Part shown: positions 11,358 to 33,973 of the stretch, one piece after another
Layout: each line of letters opens with the position of its first letter
How positions within the stretch are numbered: the first letter of the stretch is position 1
Source: an uncultured Acidobacteriota bacterium
GTDB lineage: Bacteria; Acidobacteriota; Vicinamibacteria; Fen-336
NCBI GenBank assembly: GCA_963720545.1
Contig: OY970399.1
Location: 2,720,001-2,784,000 of the forward strand
DNA length: 64,000 nt
Direction of reading: 5' to 3'
Notes under the pieces: model-generated
Told to the model about the DNA's origin: nothing
Seen by the model: the letters and a program-made list of their open reading frames with translations, nothing else
Databases searched by the model: none
Translations under genes and position numbers: made by a program

Positions 11358-12566
11358 ATGAGCAGCACCTACTTCCAGAAGGGCTTCGGCCTCAAGGCCG
11401 CCGTCACGCCGATCCTCGCCGAGAGCTACGGCAGCGGCGTCGTGGAGCGGTTGAAGGCGCTCGGCTACAACGCCCGGGCGGGCGACCTGACGCTGAAGCT
11501 CGCGAAGGAATTCGGCTTCTGCTACGGCGTCGACCGCGCGGTCGAGTACGCCTACCAGACGCGCGAACGCTTTCCCGACAAGGCCGTCTACCTCTCGGGC
11601 GAGATCATCCACAACCCCGAGGTCAACGACCGCATGCGGCGCATGGGCATCCAGATCCTGCCCGAGTCGCACGACCCGGCCACGCGCTATGCCGGCGTCG
11701 GCGACGGCGACGTGGTCATCCTGCCGGCCTTCGGCGTGACCGTCTCCGAGATGGCCGACCTGCGCGCCCGCGGCTCGGTGCTCGTCGACACCACCTGCGG
11801 CAGCGTCCTCAACGTCTGGAAGAACGTCCACAAGTACGCGCGCGACGGCTTCACCGCGGTGATCCACGGCAAGCACTACCACGAGGAAACCAAGGCCACC
11901 GCGTCGCAGGCGCTGACACACGCGGGCGGGCAGTACCTCTGCATCCGCGACCTCGACGAAGCCGCGTTCGTCGCCGCGTTCATCCGTGGCCAGCATGACG
12001 ACCCCGCATTCCTCGAGCGCTTCGCGCACGCGGTGAGCCCCGGCTTTTCGCCGCGCCGCGACCTCGAGCGCATCGGCCTCGCCAACCAGACGACGATGCT
12101 GATGAGCGAGAGCCTGAGCGTGCAGGAGATGCTGCGCCAGGCGATGGCCGAGCGTTACGGGGAAGAGGGCCTGGCCGCGCGCTTCCGCGCCTTCGACACC
12201 ATCTGCTCCGCCACCCAGGAGCGCCAGGACGCGGTCTCCGACATGCTCCGAGCCGGCGGTCTCGACCTGATGATCGTGATCGGCGGCTACAACAGCAGCA
12301 ACACCCAGGCGCTCACGCGCATGTGCGCGTCGCAGCTGCCGACCTTTCACATCGACAGCGCCGCCTGCATCGAAGACGGCGGCGCGCTACGCCACCGCCT
12401 GGTGGGCGACAAGCAGGACACGCGCATCGAGTCGTTCCTGCCGGCCGCAATGGCGACGATCGGCCTCACCGCCGGCGCCTCCACACCCAACAACGTGGTG
12501 GGCGAGGTCCTGCAGCGGATCCTCGCCCTGCGCGGGCTCGACGCCTCTTCCCTGACCGCCTGCTAG
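11358..12566 (+). CDS. ispH: 4-hydroxy-3-methylbut-2-enyl diphosphate reductase
   Basis: GFCYGVDRA, IIHNP, DTTC, NQTT, DTICSATQERQ, SSNT, TAGASTP. Confidence 0.96.
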   Translation: MSSTYFQKGFGLKAAVTPILAESYGSGVVERLKALGYNARAGDLTLKLAKEFGFCYGVDRAVEYAYQTRERFPDKAVYLSGEIIHNPEVNDRMRRMGIQILPESHDPATRYAGVGDGDVVILPAFGVTVSEMADLRARGSVLVDTTCGSVLNVWKNVHKYARDGFTAVIHGKHYHEETKATASQALTHAGGQYLCIRDLDEAAFVAAFIRGQHDDPAFLERFAHAVSPGFSPRRDLERIGLANQTTMLMSESLSVQEMLRQAMAERYGEEGLAARFRAFDTICSATQERQDAVSDMLRAGGLDLMIVIGGYNSSNTQALTRMCASQLPTFHIDSAACIEDGGALRHRLVGDKQDTRIESFLPAAMATIGLTAGASTPNNVVGEVLQRILALRGLDASSLTAC

Positions 12567-26656: not shown

Positions 26657-29176
26657 GTGAAGCGTTTCCTGGGAGCGGCGGTCCTCGCCGTGTCGATGAC
26701 GGCCGCCGGCATGGCGCGTGTGTCCGCGCAGGAGCCCGCACCGCAGGCAACACCATCGCCGCAAGTGTCGCCGCCACCATCGCCTGAGGCTTCGCCGTCG
26801 CCGGTTCCCGAGCAATCGCCATCGCCTTCGCCGTCTCCCGGCGAATCGCCCTCGCCATTGCCATCTCCGGGGGAGTCGCCATCGCCAGCGCCGTCTCCCG
26901 GCCAATCGCCGTCGCCCGCGCCCGCGCCCACGCCGACACCGCTGCCGGCAGTGGCGCCGCCGCCCGCGCTCGAGGCGGGCAACCTCCGCGTGAAGGCGGA
27001 CCAACAGGACCACGAGGAAGGCCATTCCTGGTTCCGCGGCTCCTGTGACCTGCAGTTCGGCGACATGCGCATCAACGCCGACCAGTTCGACTTCTACATT
27101 CAGGCGCAACCCGACGGCACCGAGACGCGGCGCCTGGTGGCGACCGGCAACGTGGTCTTCATGCAGGGCGACGAACGCCTTGCCGGCACCGCGCTCGACA
27201 TGGACCTGAACACCGGCAAGGGCACGTTCGACCATCCGTACGGTTACGTAACGCCCGGGCTCCTCATCGAAGGCAAGACGCTGAAGCGCCTCGACCCGAT
27301 GACCTACTGGGTCGACGACCCGACCTTCACGTCCTGCTTCCAGCCGAACCCGCGCTGGTCGTTCCGCGCGTCCTCGGCGAAGATCAAGGTCGGCAAGAAG
27401 ATCACCGCGTTCAACACGCTGATGCGCGTCAAGTCGGTGCCGACGCCGGTGTTCTTCCCGTACTTCTCCTATCCGATCAGCCGCGACGGGCGCGGCACCG
27501 GCCTGCTGTTCCCGAAGTTCGGCTTCGGCGCCAACAAGGGCTTCGAGGTGGGCCTCGGCTTCTTCTGGGCGATGGGCAGAAGCGTCGACCAGACGTTCCT
27601 GTTCGACAACTACTCGGCGATCGGCTACGGCTTCGGCCACGAGTTCCGTTACGTCGGCCAGTCGGCGTCGCGCGGCGTGTTCAACACCTACTTCTTCAAC
27701 CAGAAGCAGGACTACCTGAACCGCCCGGCGCCGGGGAAGTGGGACTACGACATCGAGGCGAACGCGAACCAGCTGCTGCCGGGCAACGTCCGCTTCAACC
27801 TGCGCAGCCGCGAATACAGCAGCCTCGGCTTCCAGCAGCGCTTCCAGGAAAGCGTCAACATCGCGACCAACCGCAACCGCTATACGCAGCTGACGCTGTC
27901 GCGCGGCTTCGGCGGGGCGAACCTGAGCGCGGTGTACGACCGCAGCCAGACGTTCTACGGCGAGACCCGCTACGTGATCCGCCGCCACGTGCCGACCGTC
28001 CGGCTGCGCCAGGGCAACATCAAGTTCGGCAAGACCGGCATCGTCGGCAACTACGAGGTGAAGGGCGAGGGCCTCGAGAACGGCGAAATCTCGCAGCGCA
28101 TCGACACCGTGGTCGACTACAACCGCTTCGACGTCAACCCGGAGATCTCGCGCCCGACGAGCCTGTCGTTCCTGCAGCTGACGCCGCGCTTCCGCTATCG
28201 CGCCACCCGCTACAGCGCCAGCTACGGCGACGACCCCGCCACCGAGGACGTCGAGACCGACTTCTTCCTCAGGAACACGCCGATCGACCGCCGCTACTGG
28301 GAGTTCTCGACCGAGCTGCGCGGCCCCAACTTCTCCAGGGTGTTTGGCGGCATCGGCTCGTACAGCGACAAGATCAAGCACGTGATCGGTCCGGAGTTCA
28401 CTTACCAGTACCGGCCCGGCGGCGACATCGACCCGGTCGCGATCCCGCGCTTCGACGGCGACGACTACACCGTCGGCACCAACCAGATCACCTACGGCAT
28501 CTACCAGACGCTGCTCGCCAAGCGGCCAAGCCCGAGCGGCAAGCGCGTGCCCTACGAGTTCCTGTCGTGGCGCCTCCTGCAGACCTACTACGGCGACATC
28601 AGCCAGGGCGCGCAGAACAACGACCCGAGCTACGTGTCGAGCCCCTATGGCACGACGCCCGAGGGCAAGGTCATCCATACCTCGCCGATCCAGTCGCGCA
28701 TCCGCTTCCGGCCGGTGCCCTCGACCTCGACCGACTTCAGCGTCGAGTACGATCCCAACTTCAAGGCCTACAAGAGCATCCGCCTGTCGCAGTCGTTCGG
28801 CATCAACCGCTTCAACTTCGACGTCGGCTTCTACAAGAACAGCAACCTCAGGCTGATCGCCGAAGACCCCACCTCGGGCATCGGCGTCTATCGCAGCGGC
28901 ACCGCGCGCGCCTCGCTCACGCTCATTCCCAACAAGCTGGTGGTAGACGCGCGCGCCGACTACGACTTCCAGCAGAAGCGCCTGTTCAACGCCATCGCCA
29001 ACTTCAAGTACAACGTCCAGTGCTGCGGCATCGGCGTGCAGATGTACCAGAAGGGCCTGCTCGGCCCCGACGGCCAGGAAACCTGGGGCTTCAAGTTCAA
29101 CATCGAGCTCGCGAACATCTCCGGCCTCGGCGGCAACGGCGACCGCGGCGGCTCGCTGACGCGCCGCAACTACTGA
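26657..29176 (+). CDS. lptD: LPS-assembly outer-membrane protein LptD-like
   Basis: Signal peptide, OstA-like N-domain (ATGNVVF, FTSC..PRW), GLLFP motif, Tyr/Phe-rich beta-barrel, C-terminal QCC. Confidence 0.82.
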   Translation: MKRFLGAAVLAVSMTAAGMARVSAQEPAPQATPSPQVSPPPSPEASPSPVPEQSPSPSPSPGESPSPLPSPGESPSPAPSPGQSPSPAPAPTPTPLPAVAPPPALEAGNLRVKADQQDHEEGHSWFRGSCDLQFGDMRINADQFDFYIQAQPDGTETRRLVATGNVVFMQGDERLAGTALDMDLNTGKGTFDHPYGYVTPGLLIEGKTLKRLDPMTYWVDDPTFTSCFQPNPRWSFRASSAKIKVGKKITAFNTLMRVKSVPTPVFFPYFSYPISRDGRGTGLLFPKFGFGANKGFEVGLGFFWAMGRSVDQTFLFDNYSAIGYGFGHEFRYVGQSASRGVFNTYFFNQKQDYLNRPAPGKWDYDIEANANQLLPGNVRFNLRSREYSSLGFQQRFQESVNIATNRNRYTQLTLSRGFGGANLSAVYDRSQTFYGETRYVIRRHVPTVRLRQGNIKFGKTGIVGNYEVKGEGLENGEISQRIDTVVDYNRFDVNPEISRPTSLSFLQLTPRFRYRATRYSASYGDDPATEDVETDFFLRNTPIDRRYWEFSTELRGPNFSRVFGGIGSYSDKIKHVIGPEFTYQYRPGGDIDPVAIPRFDGDDYTVGTNQITYGIYQTLLAKRPSPSGKRVPYEFLSWRLLQTYYGDISQGAQNNDPSYVSSPYGTTPEGKVIHTSPIQSRIRFRPVPSTSTDFSVEYDPNFKAYKSIRLSQSFGINRFNFDVGFYKNSNLRLIAEDPTSGIGVYRSGTARASLTLIPNKLVVDARADYDFQQKRLFNAIANFKYNVQCCGIGVQMYQKGLLGPDGQETWGFKFNIELANISGLGGNGDRGGSLTRRNY
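26813..26932 (+). repeat. Intragenic 30-nt tandem repeat x4 encoding (Q/E)SPSPxPSPG
   Basis: Units start at 26813, 26843, 26873 and 26903 (last one degenerate) within a longer Pro/Ser linker. Confidence 0.85.
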
Positions 29177-29208
29177 CCAGGCGCAGCGTTAAGATCCCGG
29201 TCAACAAG

Positions 29209-30171
29209 ATGCGCGTATTGGTCACCGGCGCGTCCGGATTCGTCGGCCGGCACCTGGTCGAGACGCTGGCGCACGAGCGCGGCGAGGCGGCGGTCGCGGG
29301 CCTGGTGCGTCCGGGCACCGCGGCCGAGGGGCGCATCGAGACGATTCCCTGCGACCTCGACGACCAGTCGGCGGTGCTGCGCGCGCTGGAGCGCGCCCGC
29401 CCCGAACAGGTGGTGCATCTCGCGGCGCAATCGAGCCCGCGCCTCTCCTTCGAGGATCCCGAAGGCACGCTGCGCACCAACGTCTTCGGGCTGCTGCACA
29501 TTCTCGAAGCCGTGCGGCGGCTGGCGCTGCGGCCGCGCATCCTGGTGATCGGCAGCGCCGAGGAATACGGCGCCGTGGACGCGCAGGCCGGCCCGGTCGG
29601 CGAGGACGCGCCGCTTCGGCCGCGCTCTCCCTACGCCGCGAGCAAGGTGGCGCAGGCGGTGCTGGCGCGCCAGTATGCCGCGAGCCACGGCATCGACGTG
29701 GTCCTCACCCGCACCTTCAACCACACCGGCCCGGGCCGCGGCGAAGACTTCGCCGAGAGCTCGTTCGCGCGCCAGATCGCGCGCGTCGAGGCGGGCGCGC
29801 AGCCGCCGGTGCTGGCGGTCGGCAACCTCGACACCGTGCGCGACTTCACCGACGTGCGCGACGTCTGCCGCGCCTACGCGGCGCTGCTCGAGCGCGGCGT
29901 TTCAGGCGAGACCTACAACGTCTGCTCCGGGACCGGCGTGCGCATCGGCGCCATCCTCGACGAGCTGCTGAGCCTGGCGGCGGTGCGCCCCGACGTGCGC
30001 GTGGACGCGGCGCGCCTGCGCGCCTCCGACAATCCGGTGGTCGTCGGCAATCCGGCGAAGCTGCGCGCCGCGACCGCCTGGCAGCCGCAACTGCCGCTGC
30101 GCCGCACGCTCGCCGACCTGCTCGCTTACTGGCGCGAGCGCACCGGCTCGCCCGAGGCGGTTGCGCCTTGA
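29209..30171 (+). CDS. GDP-sugar SDR, GDP-4-keto-6-deoxymannose reductase (Rmd)/Gmd-like
   Basis: VTGASGFVG, HLAAQS, SPYAASK, RTFNHTGPG, GNLDTVRDFTDVRD. Confidence 0.85.
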   Translation: MRVLVTGASGFVGRHLVETLAHERGEAAVAGLVRPGTAAEGRIETIPCDLDDQSAVLRALERARPEQVVHLAAQSSPRLSFEDPEGTLRTNVFGLLHILEAVRRLALRPRILVIGSAEEYGAVDAQAGPVGEDAPLRPRSPYAASKVAQAVLARQYAASHGIDVVLTRTFNHTGPGRGEDFAESSFARQIARVEAGAQPPVLAVGNLDTVRDFTDVRDVCRAYAALLERGVSGETYNVCSGTGVRIGAILDELLSLAAVRPDVRVDAARLRASDNPVVVGNPAKLRAATAWQPQLPLRRTLADLLAYWRERTGSPEAVAP

Positions 30172-31154
30172 AGGTGCTGCTGACCGGCGGCACCGGCTTC
30201 CTCGGCAAGAACGTCGCGCGTGCCCTGGCCGCCGCCGGCTACGAACTGCGGCTGCTGGTGCGCGCCAACAGCAACCGCAGCCTGCTGCCGGAGAACGCCG
30301 AGTTCGTGAACGGCGACGTCACCGACGCCGGGTCGCTGCTGCGCGCGGCCCAGGGCTGCGGCGCGGTGCTGCACATGGCGGCGCTGGTGAAGATGTGGGA
30401 TCCGCAGCCGCGGCGCTTCGACGAGTGCAACATCGGCGGCTTGTGGAACGCCGTCGACGCGGCCCGCCAGGCCGGCGCGCGCCTCGTCTACACGTCGTCC
30501 TTCATCGCGGTCGGCCCCACCGGCACCGAGCCGGCCGACGAGTCTCAGGTGCATCCCGGCAGCGGCTACCGCAACGCATACGAACGCACCAAGGCGATCG
30601 CCGACAAGGTGGCGCGCGACGCGGCCAGCAGGGGCGCCGACATCGTCATGGTCTATCCCGGCGTCGTCTACGGACCAGGCGAAGTGACGGACGCCAACAT
30701 CGTGGTGAAGATGATCGTCGACCACATGCACGGCCGCTTCGCCGGCATCGTCGGCCCGGGCGACCGGTTGTGGTCCTACGCCTACGTCGACGACGTGGCC
30801 CGCGGCCACGTGCTGGCGCTCGAGAAGGGTCGCGCCGGCGAGCGCTACTTCCTGTGCGGCGAGAACGTCACCATGACCGGCCTGTTCGAAACGCTGCGCG
30901 AGCTGACCGGCGTGGCGCCGCCCACGCGCCACATCCCGTACGCGGTCGCGACGGCGCTGGGCGCTCTGCTCTACGGCTGGGCCGAGATGACCGGGCGTCC
31001 GCCGATCCTCACGCACGAAGTGGTCGGCGTCTTCAAGGAGCACTGGGCGTATGCCAGCGCCAAGGCCGGGCGCGAACTCGGCTACGCACCCGTGCCGCTG
31101 CGGGAAGGACTCGAACGCACGCTTGGGTGGCTCAGGCGCGAGGCGCTCGCCTGA
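30168..31154 (+). CDS. Extended SDR, farnesol-dehydrogenase (FLDH)/HpnA-like
   Basis: TGGTGFLG, HMAALVKMW, YTSSFIA, YERTKAIADK, YPGVVYGPG, VDDVARGH..ALEKGR.GERY; TTGA overlap. Confidence 0.85.
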   Translation: MKVLLTGGTGFLGKNVARALAAAGYELRLLVRANSNRSLLPENAEFVNGDVTDAGSLLRAAQGCGAVLHMAALVKMWDPQPRRFDECNIGGLWNAVDAARQAGARLVYTSSFIAVGPTGTEPADESQVHPGSGYRNAYERTKAIADKVARDAASRGADIVMVYPGVVYGPGEVTDANIVVKMIVDHMHGRFAGIVGPGDRLWSYAYVDDVARGHVLALEKGRAGERYFLCGENVTMTGLFETLRELTGVAPPTRHIPYAVATALGALLYGWAEMTGRPPILTHEVVGVFKEHWAYASAKAGRELGYAPVPLREGLERTLGWLRREALA

Positions 31155-32512
31155 GGGTCCCGCCCTCGGAAGCGGCCCGCAAGCTCATTCACATCGCGGC
31201 GGGCGGCTTCGCGTTCCTGCTGCGCGACCTCACCTGGGCACAGGCGATCGCACTGGGCGCCGCGGCCTGCGTGTTCAACGCCGCCGTCCTGCCGCGCATC
31301 GGCGGCAAGGGACTGTGGCGCGGCAGCGAGCTGGCGCGCGGCGCGGCGCCGGGAATCCTGTTCTATCCGCTCGCCGTGCTCGGGGTGGTGCTGCTGTTCC
31401 CCGACGAACCGTGGATTGCCGCCGCGGTGTGGGGGATCCTCGCGTTCGGCGACGGCACGGCATCGCTCCTCGGCCAGGCGCTTGGCGGCGCGAAGCTGCC
31501 GTGGAACGAACGCAAGAGCTGGTCGGGATTCCTTGCGTTCATCGTCTTCGGCACCCTCGGCTCGGCCTGCCTCGCGGCATGGACGCAGCGCCTGCCGCTC
31601 GTGGACGCCTGGCACACGGGGCTCGGCGTGCTGATGTTGCTGGTGGTCGTCGCCTGCGCCCTGGTCGAGACGCTGCCCACGACCCTCGACGACAACATCA
31701 CCGTGCCGGTCGTCGGCGCGTCGCTGCTGGCGCTCTTCGGCGGCGTTTCTTTCGAGGAGTACCTCGCGCAGCCCTACCTGCTGCCGCACCTCCTGCAGGG
31801 CCTGGTGGTGAACGGCGTGTTCGCGCTCGCGGCAAAGCGCGCCGGTTCGATCGACTGGCCGGGCGCTGTTTCGGCGGTGATCGTCGGCACGCTCATCACC
31901 ATCGGGCTCGGGCTCCCCGGCCTGCTGGTGATGATCGCGTTCTTCGTCATCGGCTCGGCGGTGACGCGGCTCGGCTACCGCATCAAGGCAGCGCGCGGCA
32001 TCGCCCAGGAAAAGGGCGGCGCGCGCGGCTGGAAGAACGCGTGGGCCAACGGCGGCGTGCCGGCGCTGCTCGCGGTGCTGGCCGGCATCCACGCCGCCGC
32101 CCTCGGCGGCCTCGACAAGGCAGTGCTGTTCGCCATCGCCTACGCCGCCGCGGTCGCGACCGCAGCCGCCGACACCTGTTCCTCGGAAGTGGGTAAGGCG
32201 TACGGCCGCCGCACGTTCCTCATCACCACGCTGCGCAGCGTCCCGCCCGGCACCGAGGGCGCCGTCAGCCTCGAAGGCACGCTCGGAGGACTGGCGGGCG
32301 GCTTCCTCGTCGCTGCCGTCGGCGCCTTCGGCGGCCTCTACCCGTGGCCGGTCAGCGTGCTGGTCGGCTTCGCGGGCCTTCTCGGCAGCCTCGCGGAGAG
32401 CGTCATCGGCACGGTTGCCGAGAAGCGCGGCTGGCTCGACAACGACCTGCTGAACGCGCTCAACACCGCGATCGGCGCGCTGCTCGCGGCGGCGATGACC
32501 CGTCTCTTATAA
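31151..32512 (+). CDS. Fusion: phytol/farnesol/dolichol-kinase domain + DUF92 (VTE6-like prenyl-phosphate kinase) domain
   Basis: N-half: RKLIHI, GDGTASLLG, KLPWNERKSWSG, VETLP..LDDNITVP. C-half: DTCSSEVGKAYG..TFLITTL, GTEGAVSLEGT, ESVIG. Start is CTG 31151 (CTGA overlap) or GTG 31127. Confidence 0.88.
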   Translation: MRVPPSEAARKLIHIAAGGFAFLLRDLTWAQAIALGAAACVFNAAVLPRIGGKGLWRGSELARGAAPGILFYPLAVLGVVLLFPDEPWIAAAVWGILAFGDGTASLLGQALGGAKLPWNERKSWSGFLAFIVFGTLGSACLAAWTQRLPLVDAWHTGLGVLMLLVVVACALVETLPTTLDDNITVPVVGASLLALFGGVSFEEYLAQPYLLPHLLQGLVVNGVFALAAKRAGSIDWPGAVSAVIVGTLITIGLGLPGLLVMIAFFVIGSAVTRLGYRIKAARGIAQEKGGARGWKNAWANGGVPALLAVLAGIHAAALGGLDKAVLFAIAYAAAVATAAADTCSSEVGKAYGRRTFLITTLRSVPPGTEGAVSLEGTLGGLAGGFLVAAVGAFGGLYPWPVSVLVGFAGLLGSLAESVIGTVAEKRGWLDNDLLNALNTAIGALLAAAMTRLL

Positions 32513-32530
32513 TCGAGGCCCCCCGACAAC

Positions 32531-33442
32531 ATGGCGAGCGGCAAAATCTATTCGGAGTTCGCGCGGCCGTTCACGCTGCTGCCGCCGGCGCTGGGCGTGC
32601 TGAGCGGTGCCGTTACGGCATGGGGCGCGCACCACACCAAAGAGCCGGTGACCGCGGCGCTGGTCGTGCCGGTGCTGTTCGGCACGCTGATGGCGGCGGT
32701 GCTCAATGCCTCCAACAACGCCGTCAACCAGATCTACGACCTCGACATCGACCGCGTCAACAAGCCGGGCCGGCCGCTGCCGAGCGGCCGCCTGAGCCTG
32801 CACGACGCGTGGCTCTTCACCATCGCCACCTGCGTGCTCTCCTGGGTGCTCGCGTGGTTCGCCTCGCCGCAGGGCCGCCGCGAGTGCTTCGTCATCGTCG
32901 TGTTCACGACGCTCCTGTGCTGGATCTACTCGGCGCCGCCGCTCTGGACCAAGCGCCGCGGCTTCCTCGCCAACCTGACCATCGCGATCCCGCGCGGCGT
33001 GCTGCTGAAGGTCGCCGGCTGGTCCACGGTCAAGACGGTGATGGACGCCGAGCCGTGGTTCATCGGCTCGGTGTTCGGCCTGTTCCTGCTCGGCGCCGCC
33101 TCCACCAAAGACTTCGCCGACATCCCCGGCGACCGGGCGGGCGGCTGCCGCACGCTGCCGATCCTCTACGGCGTGAAGAAGGCCGCATGGCTCATCGCAC
33201 CCTTCTTCGTCCTGCCGTTCTTCCTCATCCCGATCGGGGTGGGCGCAGGCATCCTCACCGGCAACGCGCTGCTGCTGAACGTGTTGGGCGCCCTGCTCAT
33301 CGTCTACGGCTGCTACACGGTCTACCTGCTGGTGCGCCGGCCCGACGACCTCGCGACCACCGAGAACCACCCCTCGTGGACGCACATGTACCGGATGATG
33401 ATGCTGGCGCAGGTTGGCTTCGCGCTCGCCTACTTGTTCTAG
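32531..33442 (+). CDS. UbiA-superfamily prenyltransferase (ChlG/homogentisate-PT/DGGGPS-like)
   Basis: NQIYDLDIDRVNKPGRPLPSG, YSAPP, KDFADIPGDRAGGCRTLP; multiple TMs. Confidence 0.92.
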   Translation: MASGKIYSEFARPFTLLPPALGVLSGAVTAWGAHHTKEPVTAALVVPVLFGTLMAAVLNASNNAVNQIYDLDIDRVNKPGRPLPSGRLSLHDAWLFTIATCVLSWVLAWFASPQGRRECFVIVVFTTLLCWIYSAPPLWTKRRGFLANLTIAIPRGVLLKVAGWSTVKTVMDAEPWFIGSVFGLFLLGAASTKDFADIPGDRAGGCRTLPILYGVKKAAWLIAPFFVLPFFLIPIGVGAGILTGNALLLNVLGALLIVYGCYTVYLLVRRPDDLATTENHPSWTHMYRMMMLAQVGFALAYLF

Positions 33443-33973
33443 CTAGTCGGCGTCGGCGTACTCGCCGACCACGACACGCGCGTGGCGCACCATGTGGCCG
33501 TCGAGCTTGTAGCCGCGCACGATCTCGCGCAGCACGTAGTGGTGGCGTTCGGGATCGTCGACGCCTTCCATCTGCACTGCCTCGGCGATTTCCGGGTCGA
33601 ACACCTTGCCGATCACCGGCACCCGCTCCAGGCCCTCGCTCTGCAGCACCGACACCAGCTGGTTGCGCACCAGGATCAGCCCCTCGGCCAGGCGTTCGTC
33701 CACACCCGTGCCCTGCGCGGCTTCGAGCGCGCGGTCGAGGTTGTCGAGGACCTCGATGAAGCGCAGCAGCAGGACCTCGCGCTCCTGGCTGAACTGCAGT
33801 TCGGCGTTTCGCACCTGGCGTTCGCGCAGCGTCTGGGTTTCCGCGCGCAGTGCGCGGATGCCCTCGAGGGCTTCGCCGAGCCGGCTCTCCGCAAGCTCCG
33901 CGCGCTGGCGATAGCCTTCCAGGTTCTTGCGCAGCGCGTCGGATTCTTGTGGAGTTCTCGGGGTTTCGGTCAT
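33443..33973 (-). CDS. grpE: GrpE-like nucleotide exchange factor
   Basis: Coiled coil, then VLDNLDRAL, FDPEIAEAV, RGYKLDGHMVRHARVVV. Confidence 0.88.
   Translation of the reverse strand: MTETPRTPQESDALRKNLEGYRQRAELAESRLGEALEGIRALRAETQTLRERQVRNAELQFSQEREVLLLRFIEVLDNLDRALEAAQGTGVDERLAEGLILVRNQLVSVLQSEGLERVPVIGKVFDPEIAEAVQMEGVDDPERHHYVLREIVRGYKLDGHMVRHARVVVGEYADAD

Follow-up and report, generated by a model that had tools for sequence, protein, structure and literature searches.

A conserved Acidobacteriota gene trio encoding an FLDH-like SDR, a kinase-DUF92 fusion and a UbiA-family enzyme: candidate recycling arm and transfer step of a pathway to a prenylated membrane compound

The window analysed here is a stretch of 64,000 nucleotides from an uncultured Acidobacteriota bacterium (GenBank assembly GCA_963720545.1, contig OY970399.1, positions 2,720,001 to 2,784,000). 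The source genome (Vicinamibacteria) is one contig of 4.09 Mb and is 94.8% complete. We studied three consecutive genes on the plus strand of the window. The first (30168..31154, TTG start, 328 amino acids) encodes an extended short-chain dehydrogenase/reductase (SDR) of a clade that includes proteins resembling plant farnesol dehydrogenase (FLDH), probably a prenal/prenol oxidoreductase. The second (31151..32512, 453 amino acids from an inferred CTG start) encodes a two-domain membrane protein, a kinase-DUF92 fusion, and the third (32531..33442, 303 amino acids) a UbiA-superfamily prenyltransferase of an unnamed subfamily. Pfam returned Epimerase/3Beta_HSD for the SDR, DUF92 at residues 222-443 of the fusion, and UbiA for the last gene. 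An earlier note on this DNA had described three co-oriented genes with a 4-nt overlap and then an 18-nt gap, and the open reading frame coordinates agree: the CTG start of the fusion and the SDR stop share 4 nt (31151-31154) and 18 nt separate the fusion from UbiA. Relatives start the fusion with ATG, GTG or TTG near the CTG site of the source genome.

The trio is the tail of a longer unit. The SDR start overlaps by 4 nt the stop of a gene for an NDP-sugar dehydratase/reductase of the GDP_Man_Dehyd family (29191..30171, plus strand, start approximate), which itself follows lptD (26657..29176, plus strand) at a spacing of about 14 nt. The unit therefore comprises, in order of transcription, at least five genes: lptD, the NDP-sugar reductase, the SDR, the kinase-DUF92 fusion and UbiA. 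This lptD is the sole copy found in the source genome by tblastn, and lptD also heads the unit in many relatives. On the downstream side the unit is bounded by the convergent grpE gene (33443..33970, minus strand), whose stop abuts that of UbiA. A promoter scan of the locus returned none, and terminator-like sites occurred near the level of chance.

This arrangement was conserved among relatives. The fusion was matched in 32 of 41 related genomes, and the trio stood as one block in 27 of 30 related loci (the source locus among them), the exceptions being two loci with the fusion alone (L013 and L015) and one cut by a contig end (L024). Titled relatives of the locus belong to Vicinamibacteria, Thermoanaerobaculia and other Acidobacteriota; the trio was together in 18 of the 20 titled genome loci, and the remaining two are cut by contig ends. 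Among 80 metagenome loci, 46 have 1.5 kb of sequence upstream of UbiA, and the fusion was found there in 44; for the SDR the figure is 26 of 35 and for lptD 19 of 26. Source names extend the UbiA subfamily to Planctomycetota and Omnitrophota.

We then surveyed 301 Acidobacteriota genomes, each at least 85% complete. The UbiA subfamily (E up to 1e-30) was present in 99 and DUF92 in 131, no DUF92 match being obtained in 170. DUF92 was carried by 98 of the 99 UbiA-positive genomes and lay within 3 kb of UbiA in 71; four of these 71 close pairs are convergent, i.e. adjacency was kept after inversion. The SDR was scored at a cut of 200 bits, which was set after the scores were seen and misses divergent operon SDRs (L080, L088, L203). 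At this cut it occurred in 55 genomes, 51 of them with UbiA and 44 with the SDR beside DUF92, and was missing from 48 of the 99 UbiA-positive genomes. All three genes fell within 3 kb in 32 genomes. Leaving out two unpublished positives (G063 and G185) gives 97 genomes with UbiA, 96 with DUF92 as well, 69 with both within 3 kb and 31 with the trio; a third unpublished genome (G088) counts only toward the genome total. Kinase and UbiA lie apart in 27 genomes, some of which may reflect contig breaks. The SDR was found in 16 of these, beside the kinase in 12 and beside UbiA in none. The synteny expected of the trio was thus borne out, with the SDR staying with the kinase when the block is split.

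We also sampled 40 of the 99 positives, choosing UbiA loci from different families. The fusion accompanied UbiA in 28 of them, the SDR in 20, lptD in 20, NDP-sugar genes in 12, an NPP-family gene in 3 and a prenyl diphosphate synthase in 2. The housekeeping genes fabI, lptD and grpE/clpB are conserved neighbours of the block too, and one could therefore ask whether the trio preserves an ancient gene order and serves no common pathway. We regard this as very improbable: adjacency outlasts inversion in the four genomes, genes unlinked to the block are co-lost with UbiA, and both a DUF92-UbiA protein (P0303) and desaturase-UbiA fusions exist. The flipped UbiA genes, converging on the kinase fusion yet still adjacent to it, are those of L063, L077, L093 and G175.

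The SDR carries a Gly-rich loop, the Ser and YxxxK. All eight sequence patterns tested, drawn up from the FLDH motif list of the earlier note, were present. The best NCBIfam model is HpnA (TIGR03466), which belongs to the same extended-SDR group, with 245.8 bits, under the cut-off of 367.65; among 31 SDR relatives scanned, six proteins of ordinary length exceed that cut-off. Against the streptophyte group the SDR showed 41-44% identity and 246-292 bits, compared to 170-198 bits against HpnA, and its 150 best 50%-cluster representatives include proteins of Morus, Rhynchospora, Closterium and Netrium. In a 23-row tree, plant and operon rows unite at 99/98, and a constraint placing the operon SDRs with HpnA was rejected (approximately unbiased test, p 0.036). 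In a 60-row tree, one clade (99/86, the bootstrap being not fully settled) takes in all 15 operon SDRs together with four rows of the streptophyte group and 20 unnamed ones, and a 100/98 branch separates it from HpnA. The same FLDH-like/HpnA split was obtained with FastTree on 140 rows, a length filter having removed 28 fragments or fusions, three of which were restored. The plant rows (Morus, Rhynchospora, Netrium and one unnamed) are annotated as dihydroflavonol-reductase-like or Rossmann proteins.

Genome context points the same way. The neighbours of the SDR are not hpn genes, and no SQHop (hopene) cyclase match was found in the source genome at its 94.8% completeness. One genome (G020) holds both SDR kinds, a 177-bit match about 1 kb from shc and the operon SDR (485 bits) elsewhere. 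Identification of the SDR as HpnA or a sugar epimerase was accordingly rejected, given its score below the TIGR03466 cut-off, its position outside the HpnA clade and the constraint test. Three sequence-checkable outcomes would have spoken against the earlier proposal, such groupings and a lack of synteny among them, and none was observed. The streptophyte FLDH-like proteins (P0144, P0273, P0274, P0156) sit as a sub-clade inside or next to a largely bacterial group to which the operon SDRs belong; plant FLDH may be of bacterial origin. Farnesal is reduced by FLDH, with a preference for C15 over C20 substrates (PMC13415981).

In the fusion, residues ~5-200 are phytol/dolichol-kinase-like and residues ~220-445 correspond to DUF92 (COG1836, VTE6-like). 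The middle gene is probably of the VTE5/SEC59 plus VTE6/DUF92 type, as had been proposed. DUF92 (PF01940) scored over its cut-off (195.5 bits), with 49 of 49 members matched, and TIGR00297 slightly below its own (191.4 against 205.85). Eight N-domain residues, R10, H14, G100, D101, K122, E173, D181 and N182, are invariant in the 49 members and are reminiscent of what we take to be the VTE5/SEC59 motifs RKxxH, GDG, KS/TW and DDN. For the N-domain, a lead from the Atlas goes in the same direction. The structure model is confident (pLDDT 93), and a sequence search found no solved structure of the fusion. A fold search returned CarS (Z 7.6, root-mean-square deviation 3.5, 120 aligned) and CdsA (Z 6.4) on the C-domain, with the N-domain barely covered; these matches lie below the Z 8 level of chance matches and were set aside. 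Bacterial VTE5-VTE6 fusions are said to have been reported by vom Dorp in 2015.

By its description, the closest published layout is that of the archaeal SEC59(COG0170)-COG1836 fusions of Methanosarcina, e.g. Mbar_A3310, which are predicted isoprenoid kinases (PMC5898192). The archaeal genes occur in a uppS context, in contrast to the lptD and NDP-sugar genes, FLDH-like SDR and orphan UbiA found here. The prediction of VTE6 itself started from COG1836 genes in photosynthetic prokaryotes (PMC9782597). A full-length fusion is also present in a genome (G192) with three (bacterio)chlorophyll-synthase-type genes and without the operon-type UbiA.

The envelope context of the fusion suggests another reading, in which it would mainly re-phosphorylate long polyprenol carriers such as undecaprenol for lipopolysaccharide (LPS) or O-antigen synthesis, like a dolichol kinase, SDR and UbiA being later additions to an envelope operon. 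Consistent with this, both fusion domains were matched in 9 of 12 UbiA-negative genomes examined, often behind NDP-sugar genes and lptD. Among 20 DUF92 loci away from or without UbiA, NDP-sugar genes lie beside 10 and lptD beside 7; archaeal DUF92 genes, as mentioned, adjoin uppS (PMC5898192). However, the 170 genomes without a DUF92 match belong to a set in which lpxC is found in 297 of 301, and carrier recycling needs no second phosphorylation to the diphosphate, as is well established. Retention of DUF92 in 98 of 99 UbiA carriers and the tracking of the kinase by the SDR are also left unaccounted for. We therefore consider this reading unlikely, though more likely than that of a mere inherited gene order.

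The UbiA protein displays the motifs NQxxDxxxD, YS and KDFxDxxGD, and invariant R155, K193 and N279/H280/W283/Y287. NQxxDxxxD is reminiscent of homogentisate prenyltransferase (HPT), a likeness not found in the available portion of PMC10617047. The protein fell under every family cut-off: 129 of 313 bits for ChlG, 127 of 269 for PRK12884, 107 of 212 for BchG, 95 of 296 and 79 of 353 for two models of digeranylgeranylglyceryl phosphate (DGGGP) synthase, and 92 of 226 for HPT. Likewise, 21 diverse members and P0303 passed no DGGGP-type cut-off among the top families shown. A tree without HPT rows, and with long branches for the two rows named DGGGP synthase, puts 19 members in one clade (84/94), apart from ChlG/BchG/BchK (98/99). 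UbiA enzymes cluster by acceptor type (PMC9385802).

Two known enzymes come closest. DGGGP synthase (PDB 6M31) gave the best fold match to the UbiA model (pLDDT 94; TM 0.70) and the best profile match (101.7 bits), and NKPxRPLPSG and KDFxDxxGD are common to both. Fold and Asp-rich motifs are common to the wider UbiA superfamily, hence not specific, and the operon enzyme differs by a Q for D in the first motif, by its invariant R155, by its scores below the cut-offs and by the lack of a PcrB match in the source genome. Other functions have been assumed for bacterial DGGGP-synthase homologues (PMC7852524). A DGGGP-synthase-named gene was also seen beside hydrogenase maturation genes on the Acaryochloris plasmid pREB4 (L185, 5779-6666).

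ChlG/BchG/BchK (PDB 9SAU) gave the best single-sequence match. The ChlG pyrophosphate/Mg residues K39, N89, D93, D97, R104, Y159, K167, D219 and D226 (preprint 10.64898/2026.05.13.724888) align to R12, N66, D70, D74, R81, Y133, K141, D194 and D201 of the operon enzyme, invariant in 68 UbiA rows. All positions of this set are kept, in contrast to the acceptor side, where N218, which binds the acceptor in ChlG according to the same preprint, is replaced by K193 and Y181 by R155, K221 being replaced too. D90 is exchanged for Q67. DGGGP synthase likewise has a K at the position of ChlG N218. Since two fixed basic residues adjoin the place of the ChlG acceptor, the alignment suggests that the acceptor of the operon UbiA is anionic.

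Several functional assignments of UbiA were tried and rejected. It is not a chlorophyll synthase as judged by the ChlG and BchG cut-offs, the separate clade and the absence of a Mg-chelatase H (PF02514) match in the source genome; the last result also fits the non-photosynthetic appearance of the host remarked on before. HPT was rejected on score and because 4-hydroxyphenylpyruvate dioxygenase (HPPD) was not found in the source genome; HPPD was over cut-off in one of five UbiA carriers. No tocopherol cyclase match was obtained in the source genome, by a search that missed a cyanobacterial control as well. The classic archaeal lipid route was rejected, the source genome giving no match for the geranylgeranylglyceryl phosphate (GGGP) synthase PcrB (PF01884). 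Chlorophyllide, GGGP and homogentisate have, given these four missing matches, no evident supply in the source genome. MenA/MqnP, heme O synthase and DPPR synthase were rejected on low scores, and separate MqnP-like, CtaB and partial DPPR-synthase-like genes are present. The DPPR-synthase-like UbiA (L054; G000:C1:3182153-3182401, G000 being the source genome) was matched only in part (profile 15-97) and may be frameshifted.

A search for longer forms of UbiA gave 15 matches. Clean fusions of a fatty-acid-desaturase-family domain to UbiA were found in P0301 and P0302 (81% alike), NPP-UbiA fusions in P0296 and P0299, and the DUF92-UbiA fusion in P0303. Apparent kinase-UbiA triple fusions (P0294, P0295, P0304, P0308) were left out as likely frameshift read-throughs, and so were P0297, P0298 and P0305. 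The source genome carries a stand-alone desaturase-like gene (G000:C1:3523699-3524709; L210:7700-8713, minus strand) 50% identical to the fused domain and with three His boxes; its named relatives (GntB, CrtR, DesB) are only weak, and its family also holds carotenoid and amino-acid hydroxylases. It was found in 49 of the 301 genomes, all 49 UbiA-positive (47 of 47 without the unpublished genomes), and in none of the 202 UbiA-negative ones. Within the family of the source genome, 15 of 24 genomes have the desaturase, and these are the 15 with UbiA; two members that keep the fusion with no SDR or UbiA at the locus (G009 and G021) lack the desaturase-like gene. In another family (f3) the desaturase is present in 15 of 15 genomes and UbiA in 12, the three UbiA misses being 75-88% complete. 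No conserved neighbours of the desaturase-like gene were observed in 21 loci.

A second unlinked gene also tracks UbiA in its occurrence. It encodes a second short-chain prenyl diphosphate synthase (G000:C1:2277415-2278293; L211:7416-8294, minus strand), located between a SurA-like gene and purM (neighbours named by eye). Five residues before the first DD motif it has Ala instead of the Tyr of IspA, which we take to be a trait of geranylgeranyl diphosphate (GGPP) synthases. Its orthologue was found in 15 of 15 UbiA-positive and 1 of 9 UbiA-negative genomes of the source family. Across the phylum, at a cut of at least 198 bits set after the scores were seen, 47 genomes carry it, 44 of them UbiA-positive. 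Prenyl diphosphate synthases also flank lone UbiA genes, of the second-synthase type in L097 and of the IspA type in L066. The gain and loss of these two genes with UbiA point to an undescribed lipid pathway.

The desaturase fusion could also indicate a fatty-alcohol donor. The SDR would then reduce a fatty aldehyde, the fusion would make an alkyl diphosphate, UbiA would use this for a lipid with an alkyl ether or ester bond, and the alkyl chain would be the target of the desaturase. The related BchK takes free alcohols, and straight-chain ones such as stearol are among those it attaches (PMC9066304, PMC7242693). The association of UbiA with DUF92 in 98 of 99 genomes would be expected if only the kinase makes the donor. 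The rare loss of the kinase from UbiA carriers and this use of straight-chain alcohols keep the idea alive. However, the GGPP-synthase-like gene is co-lost with UbiA in the source family, and prenyl diphosphate synthases lie beside lone UbiA genes. Further points against it are the kinship of the SDR to FLDH-like proteins, the 48 of 99 carriers with no SDR at the 200-bit cut, the lack of an acyl-reductase gene among the neighbours annotated, and the breadth of the desaturase family. We rate it as unlikely, marginally below the polyprenol-carrier alternative.

The source genome is well supplied with isoprenoid enzymes: dxr, ispH, ispA, the second short-chain synthase and a long-chain prenyl diphosphate synthase are all present. 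The ispH gene of the methylerythritol phosphate (MEP) pathway lies in the window itself at 11358..12566 (plus strand), as the earlier note had it, is named from its motifs and serves as context only. MEP genes are present across cultured Acidobacteria generally (PMC5462960). These genes tell against the purpose first proposed for the operon, a bypass of the MEP pathway by scavenging of farnesol, geranylgeraniol or phytol. Plant litter would be the source of these prenols. The enzyme set and order would fit such scavenging, and MEP inhibition is rescued by prenol salvage in other organisms (PMC9782597). Yet the second synthase is retained in the source family where UbiA is retained, and no recurrent transporter was seen among the neighbours annotated. 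Like the fatty-alcohol donor, and to a similar degree, scavenging as the main role seems unlikely.

Replacement of LPS by the product was rejected, lipid A synthesis being intact as judged by lpxC. Hopanoid replacement was set aside as well, hopene cyclase being over cut-off in one of five carriers examined, so that the two are not exclusive. Two tandem squalene/phytoene-synthase-family genes (hpnC/hpnD-like, G000:C1:3378248-3379850) were observed in the source genome, despite no hopene cyclase being found there.

Taken together, we favour, as somewhat better than an even proposition, a model in which the operon supplies two parts of a larger pathway to a prenylated membrane compound, namely its transfer step and its recycling arm. 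Prenyl diphosphates would be made de novo, with MEP enzymes and IspA or the second short-chain synthase supplying farnesyl diphosphate or GGPP. UbiA, whose fold and catalytic residues are observed, would use Mg2+ and the prenyl diphosphate for O-prenylation of an anionic acceptor near the membrane, most likely a glycerophosphate-type lipid intermediate (giving an ether, as with DGGGP synthase), otherwise a carboxylate (giving an ester, as with ChlG). A di-iron desaturase/hydroxylase, present in roughly half the carriers, may tailor the product or its chain, as its fusion to and co-loss with UbiA suggest. Turnover would release prenal and prenol. Judging by kinship to the plant enzymes, the SDR would reduce the prenal, the N-domain of the fusion would form prenyl phosphate with CTP, and the DUF92 domain would convert it to prenyl diphosphate for return to UbiA. 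External prenols could feed the same recycling arm. As first formulated, gene order was read as a complete route from prenal to prenylated product; such a self-contained three-step route is not supported, since the SDR is missing at the 200-bit cut from 48 of 99 carriers, the fusion persists without UbiA and two unlinked genes track UbiA.

A number of points weigh against this model. It is read from genes, folds, residues, kinship, synteny, fusions and shared presence or absence, and kinship among genomes inflates the independence of the co-occurrence counts, which carry no correction by species tree. CTP_transf_1 (PF01148) matches only 7 of 49 N-domains (best 8.7e-7), the source protein P0001 not among them. 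The fusion remains behind NDP-sugar genes or lptD in UbiA-less genomes, which fits a different main job, and the model does not account for this lasting link, lipid A synthesis being intact. The plant rows are presumed to be FLDH orthologues on their motifs, At4g33360 itself not being among them, and the best solved relative of the SDR, 3WJ7 ('putative oxidoreductase'), is presumably a fatty-aldehyde reductase. The scheme names no source of prenal, which in plants comes from prenylcysteine lyase. The desaturase was rejected as such a source for lack of a positive association with the SDR among the 99 carriers (both in 21, desaturase only in 28, SDR only in 30, neither in 20). In family f3 the second synthase was absent from all 15 genomes, including the 12 that are UbiA-positive. 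Finally, UbiA is seldom found without the kinase, which is odd if de novo supply of prenyl diphosphate suffices.

A more specific form of the favoured model can be outlined. UbiA would ether-link geranylgeranyl or farnesyl to a bacterial glycerophosphate lipid without GGGP synthase, with di-iron tailoring, LptD-linked envelope genes upstream and plant-like FLDH/VTE5/VTE6 recycling. Such a lipid would occur in roughly one in three Acidobacteriota, as well as in some members of Planctomycetota and Omnitrophota. We hold this hybrid lipid to be a long shot, if a better one than any of the four alternatives considered above. If true, an isoprenoid ether lipid in Acidobacteriota, a phylum among the most abundant in soil, would matter for lipid biomarkers and for the lipid divide, which it would straddle.

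The nearest known counterparts of the system are plant prenol salvage (FCLY, FLDH At4g33360, FOLK) and phytol salvage (VTE5 and VTE6 feeding HPT, ChlG or MenA), which use the same families in the same pathway order. Shared with them are an SDR in a clade with streptophyte FLDH-like proteins, a DUF92 domain and a UbiA enzyme as consumer. In contrast to plants, the genes here form a single operon with fused putative kinases in a non-phototrophic host, the consumer is not HPT, ChlG or MenA, and HPPD, tocopherol cyclase and Mg-chelatase H were not found in the source genome. According to a 2022 review, few prenol or prenyl-phosphate kinases are known, all of them from plants and cyanobacteria (PMC9782597). 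The locus offers a bacterial candidate that could carry out both kinase steps in a single protein, along with a relative of plant FLDH from a bacterium.

Among open-access papers, supplements not covered, no description of the operon or of the UbiA subfamily was found, and the available portions of PMC5694494 and PMC10617047 added nothing on bacteria. The earlier note, too, knew of no description as a bacterial operon; the fusion itself is published for archaea (PMC5898192). Every part comes from a known family, and the locus is real and conserved; new here are the FLDH placement of the SDR, the counts across the phylum, the exchanged residues around the acceptor and the two partner genes found outside the operon. 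With the tracking desaturase-like and GGPP-synthase-like genes, UbiA belongs to a set of five to six genes, whose product could be searched for by comparing carriers and non-carriers.

Some further genes were seen near UbiA. An ICMT-family methyltransferase gene follows it at one of the 40 loci (L087:4279-4848), an echo of the plant prenylcysteine cycle; tblastn gave no match for it in the source genome. In two families UbiA is followed by a protein of 250-265 amino acids without a Pfam match (L072:4177-4932, L084:4186-4980), which was matched in the source genome near C1:1420100-1420600. The operon-leading gene of L072, L080, L088 and L203 is 42% identical to an NPP/phosphodiesterase-family protein of the source genome (G000:C1:1396489-1398489; L209:12427-14499). 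Several NPP-family paralogues are present there, and it is this same Pfam family that is fused to UbiA in P0296 and P0299.

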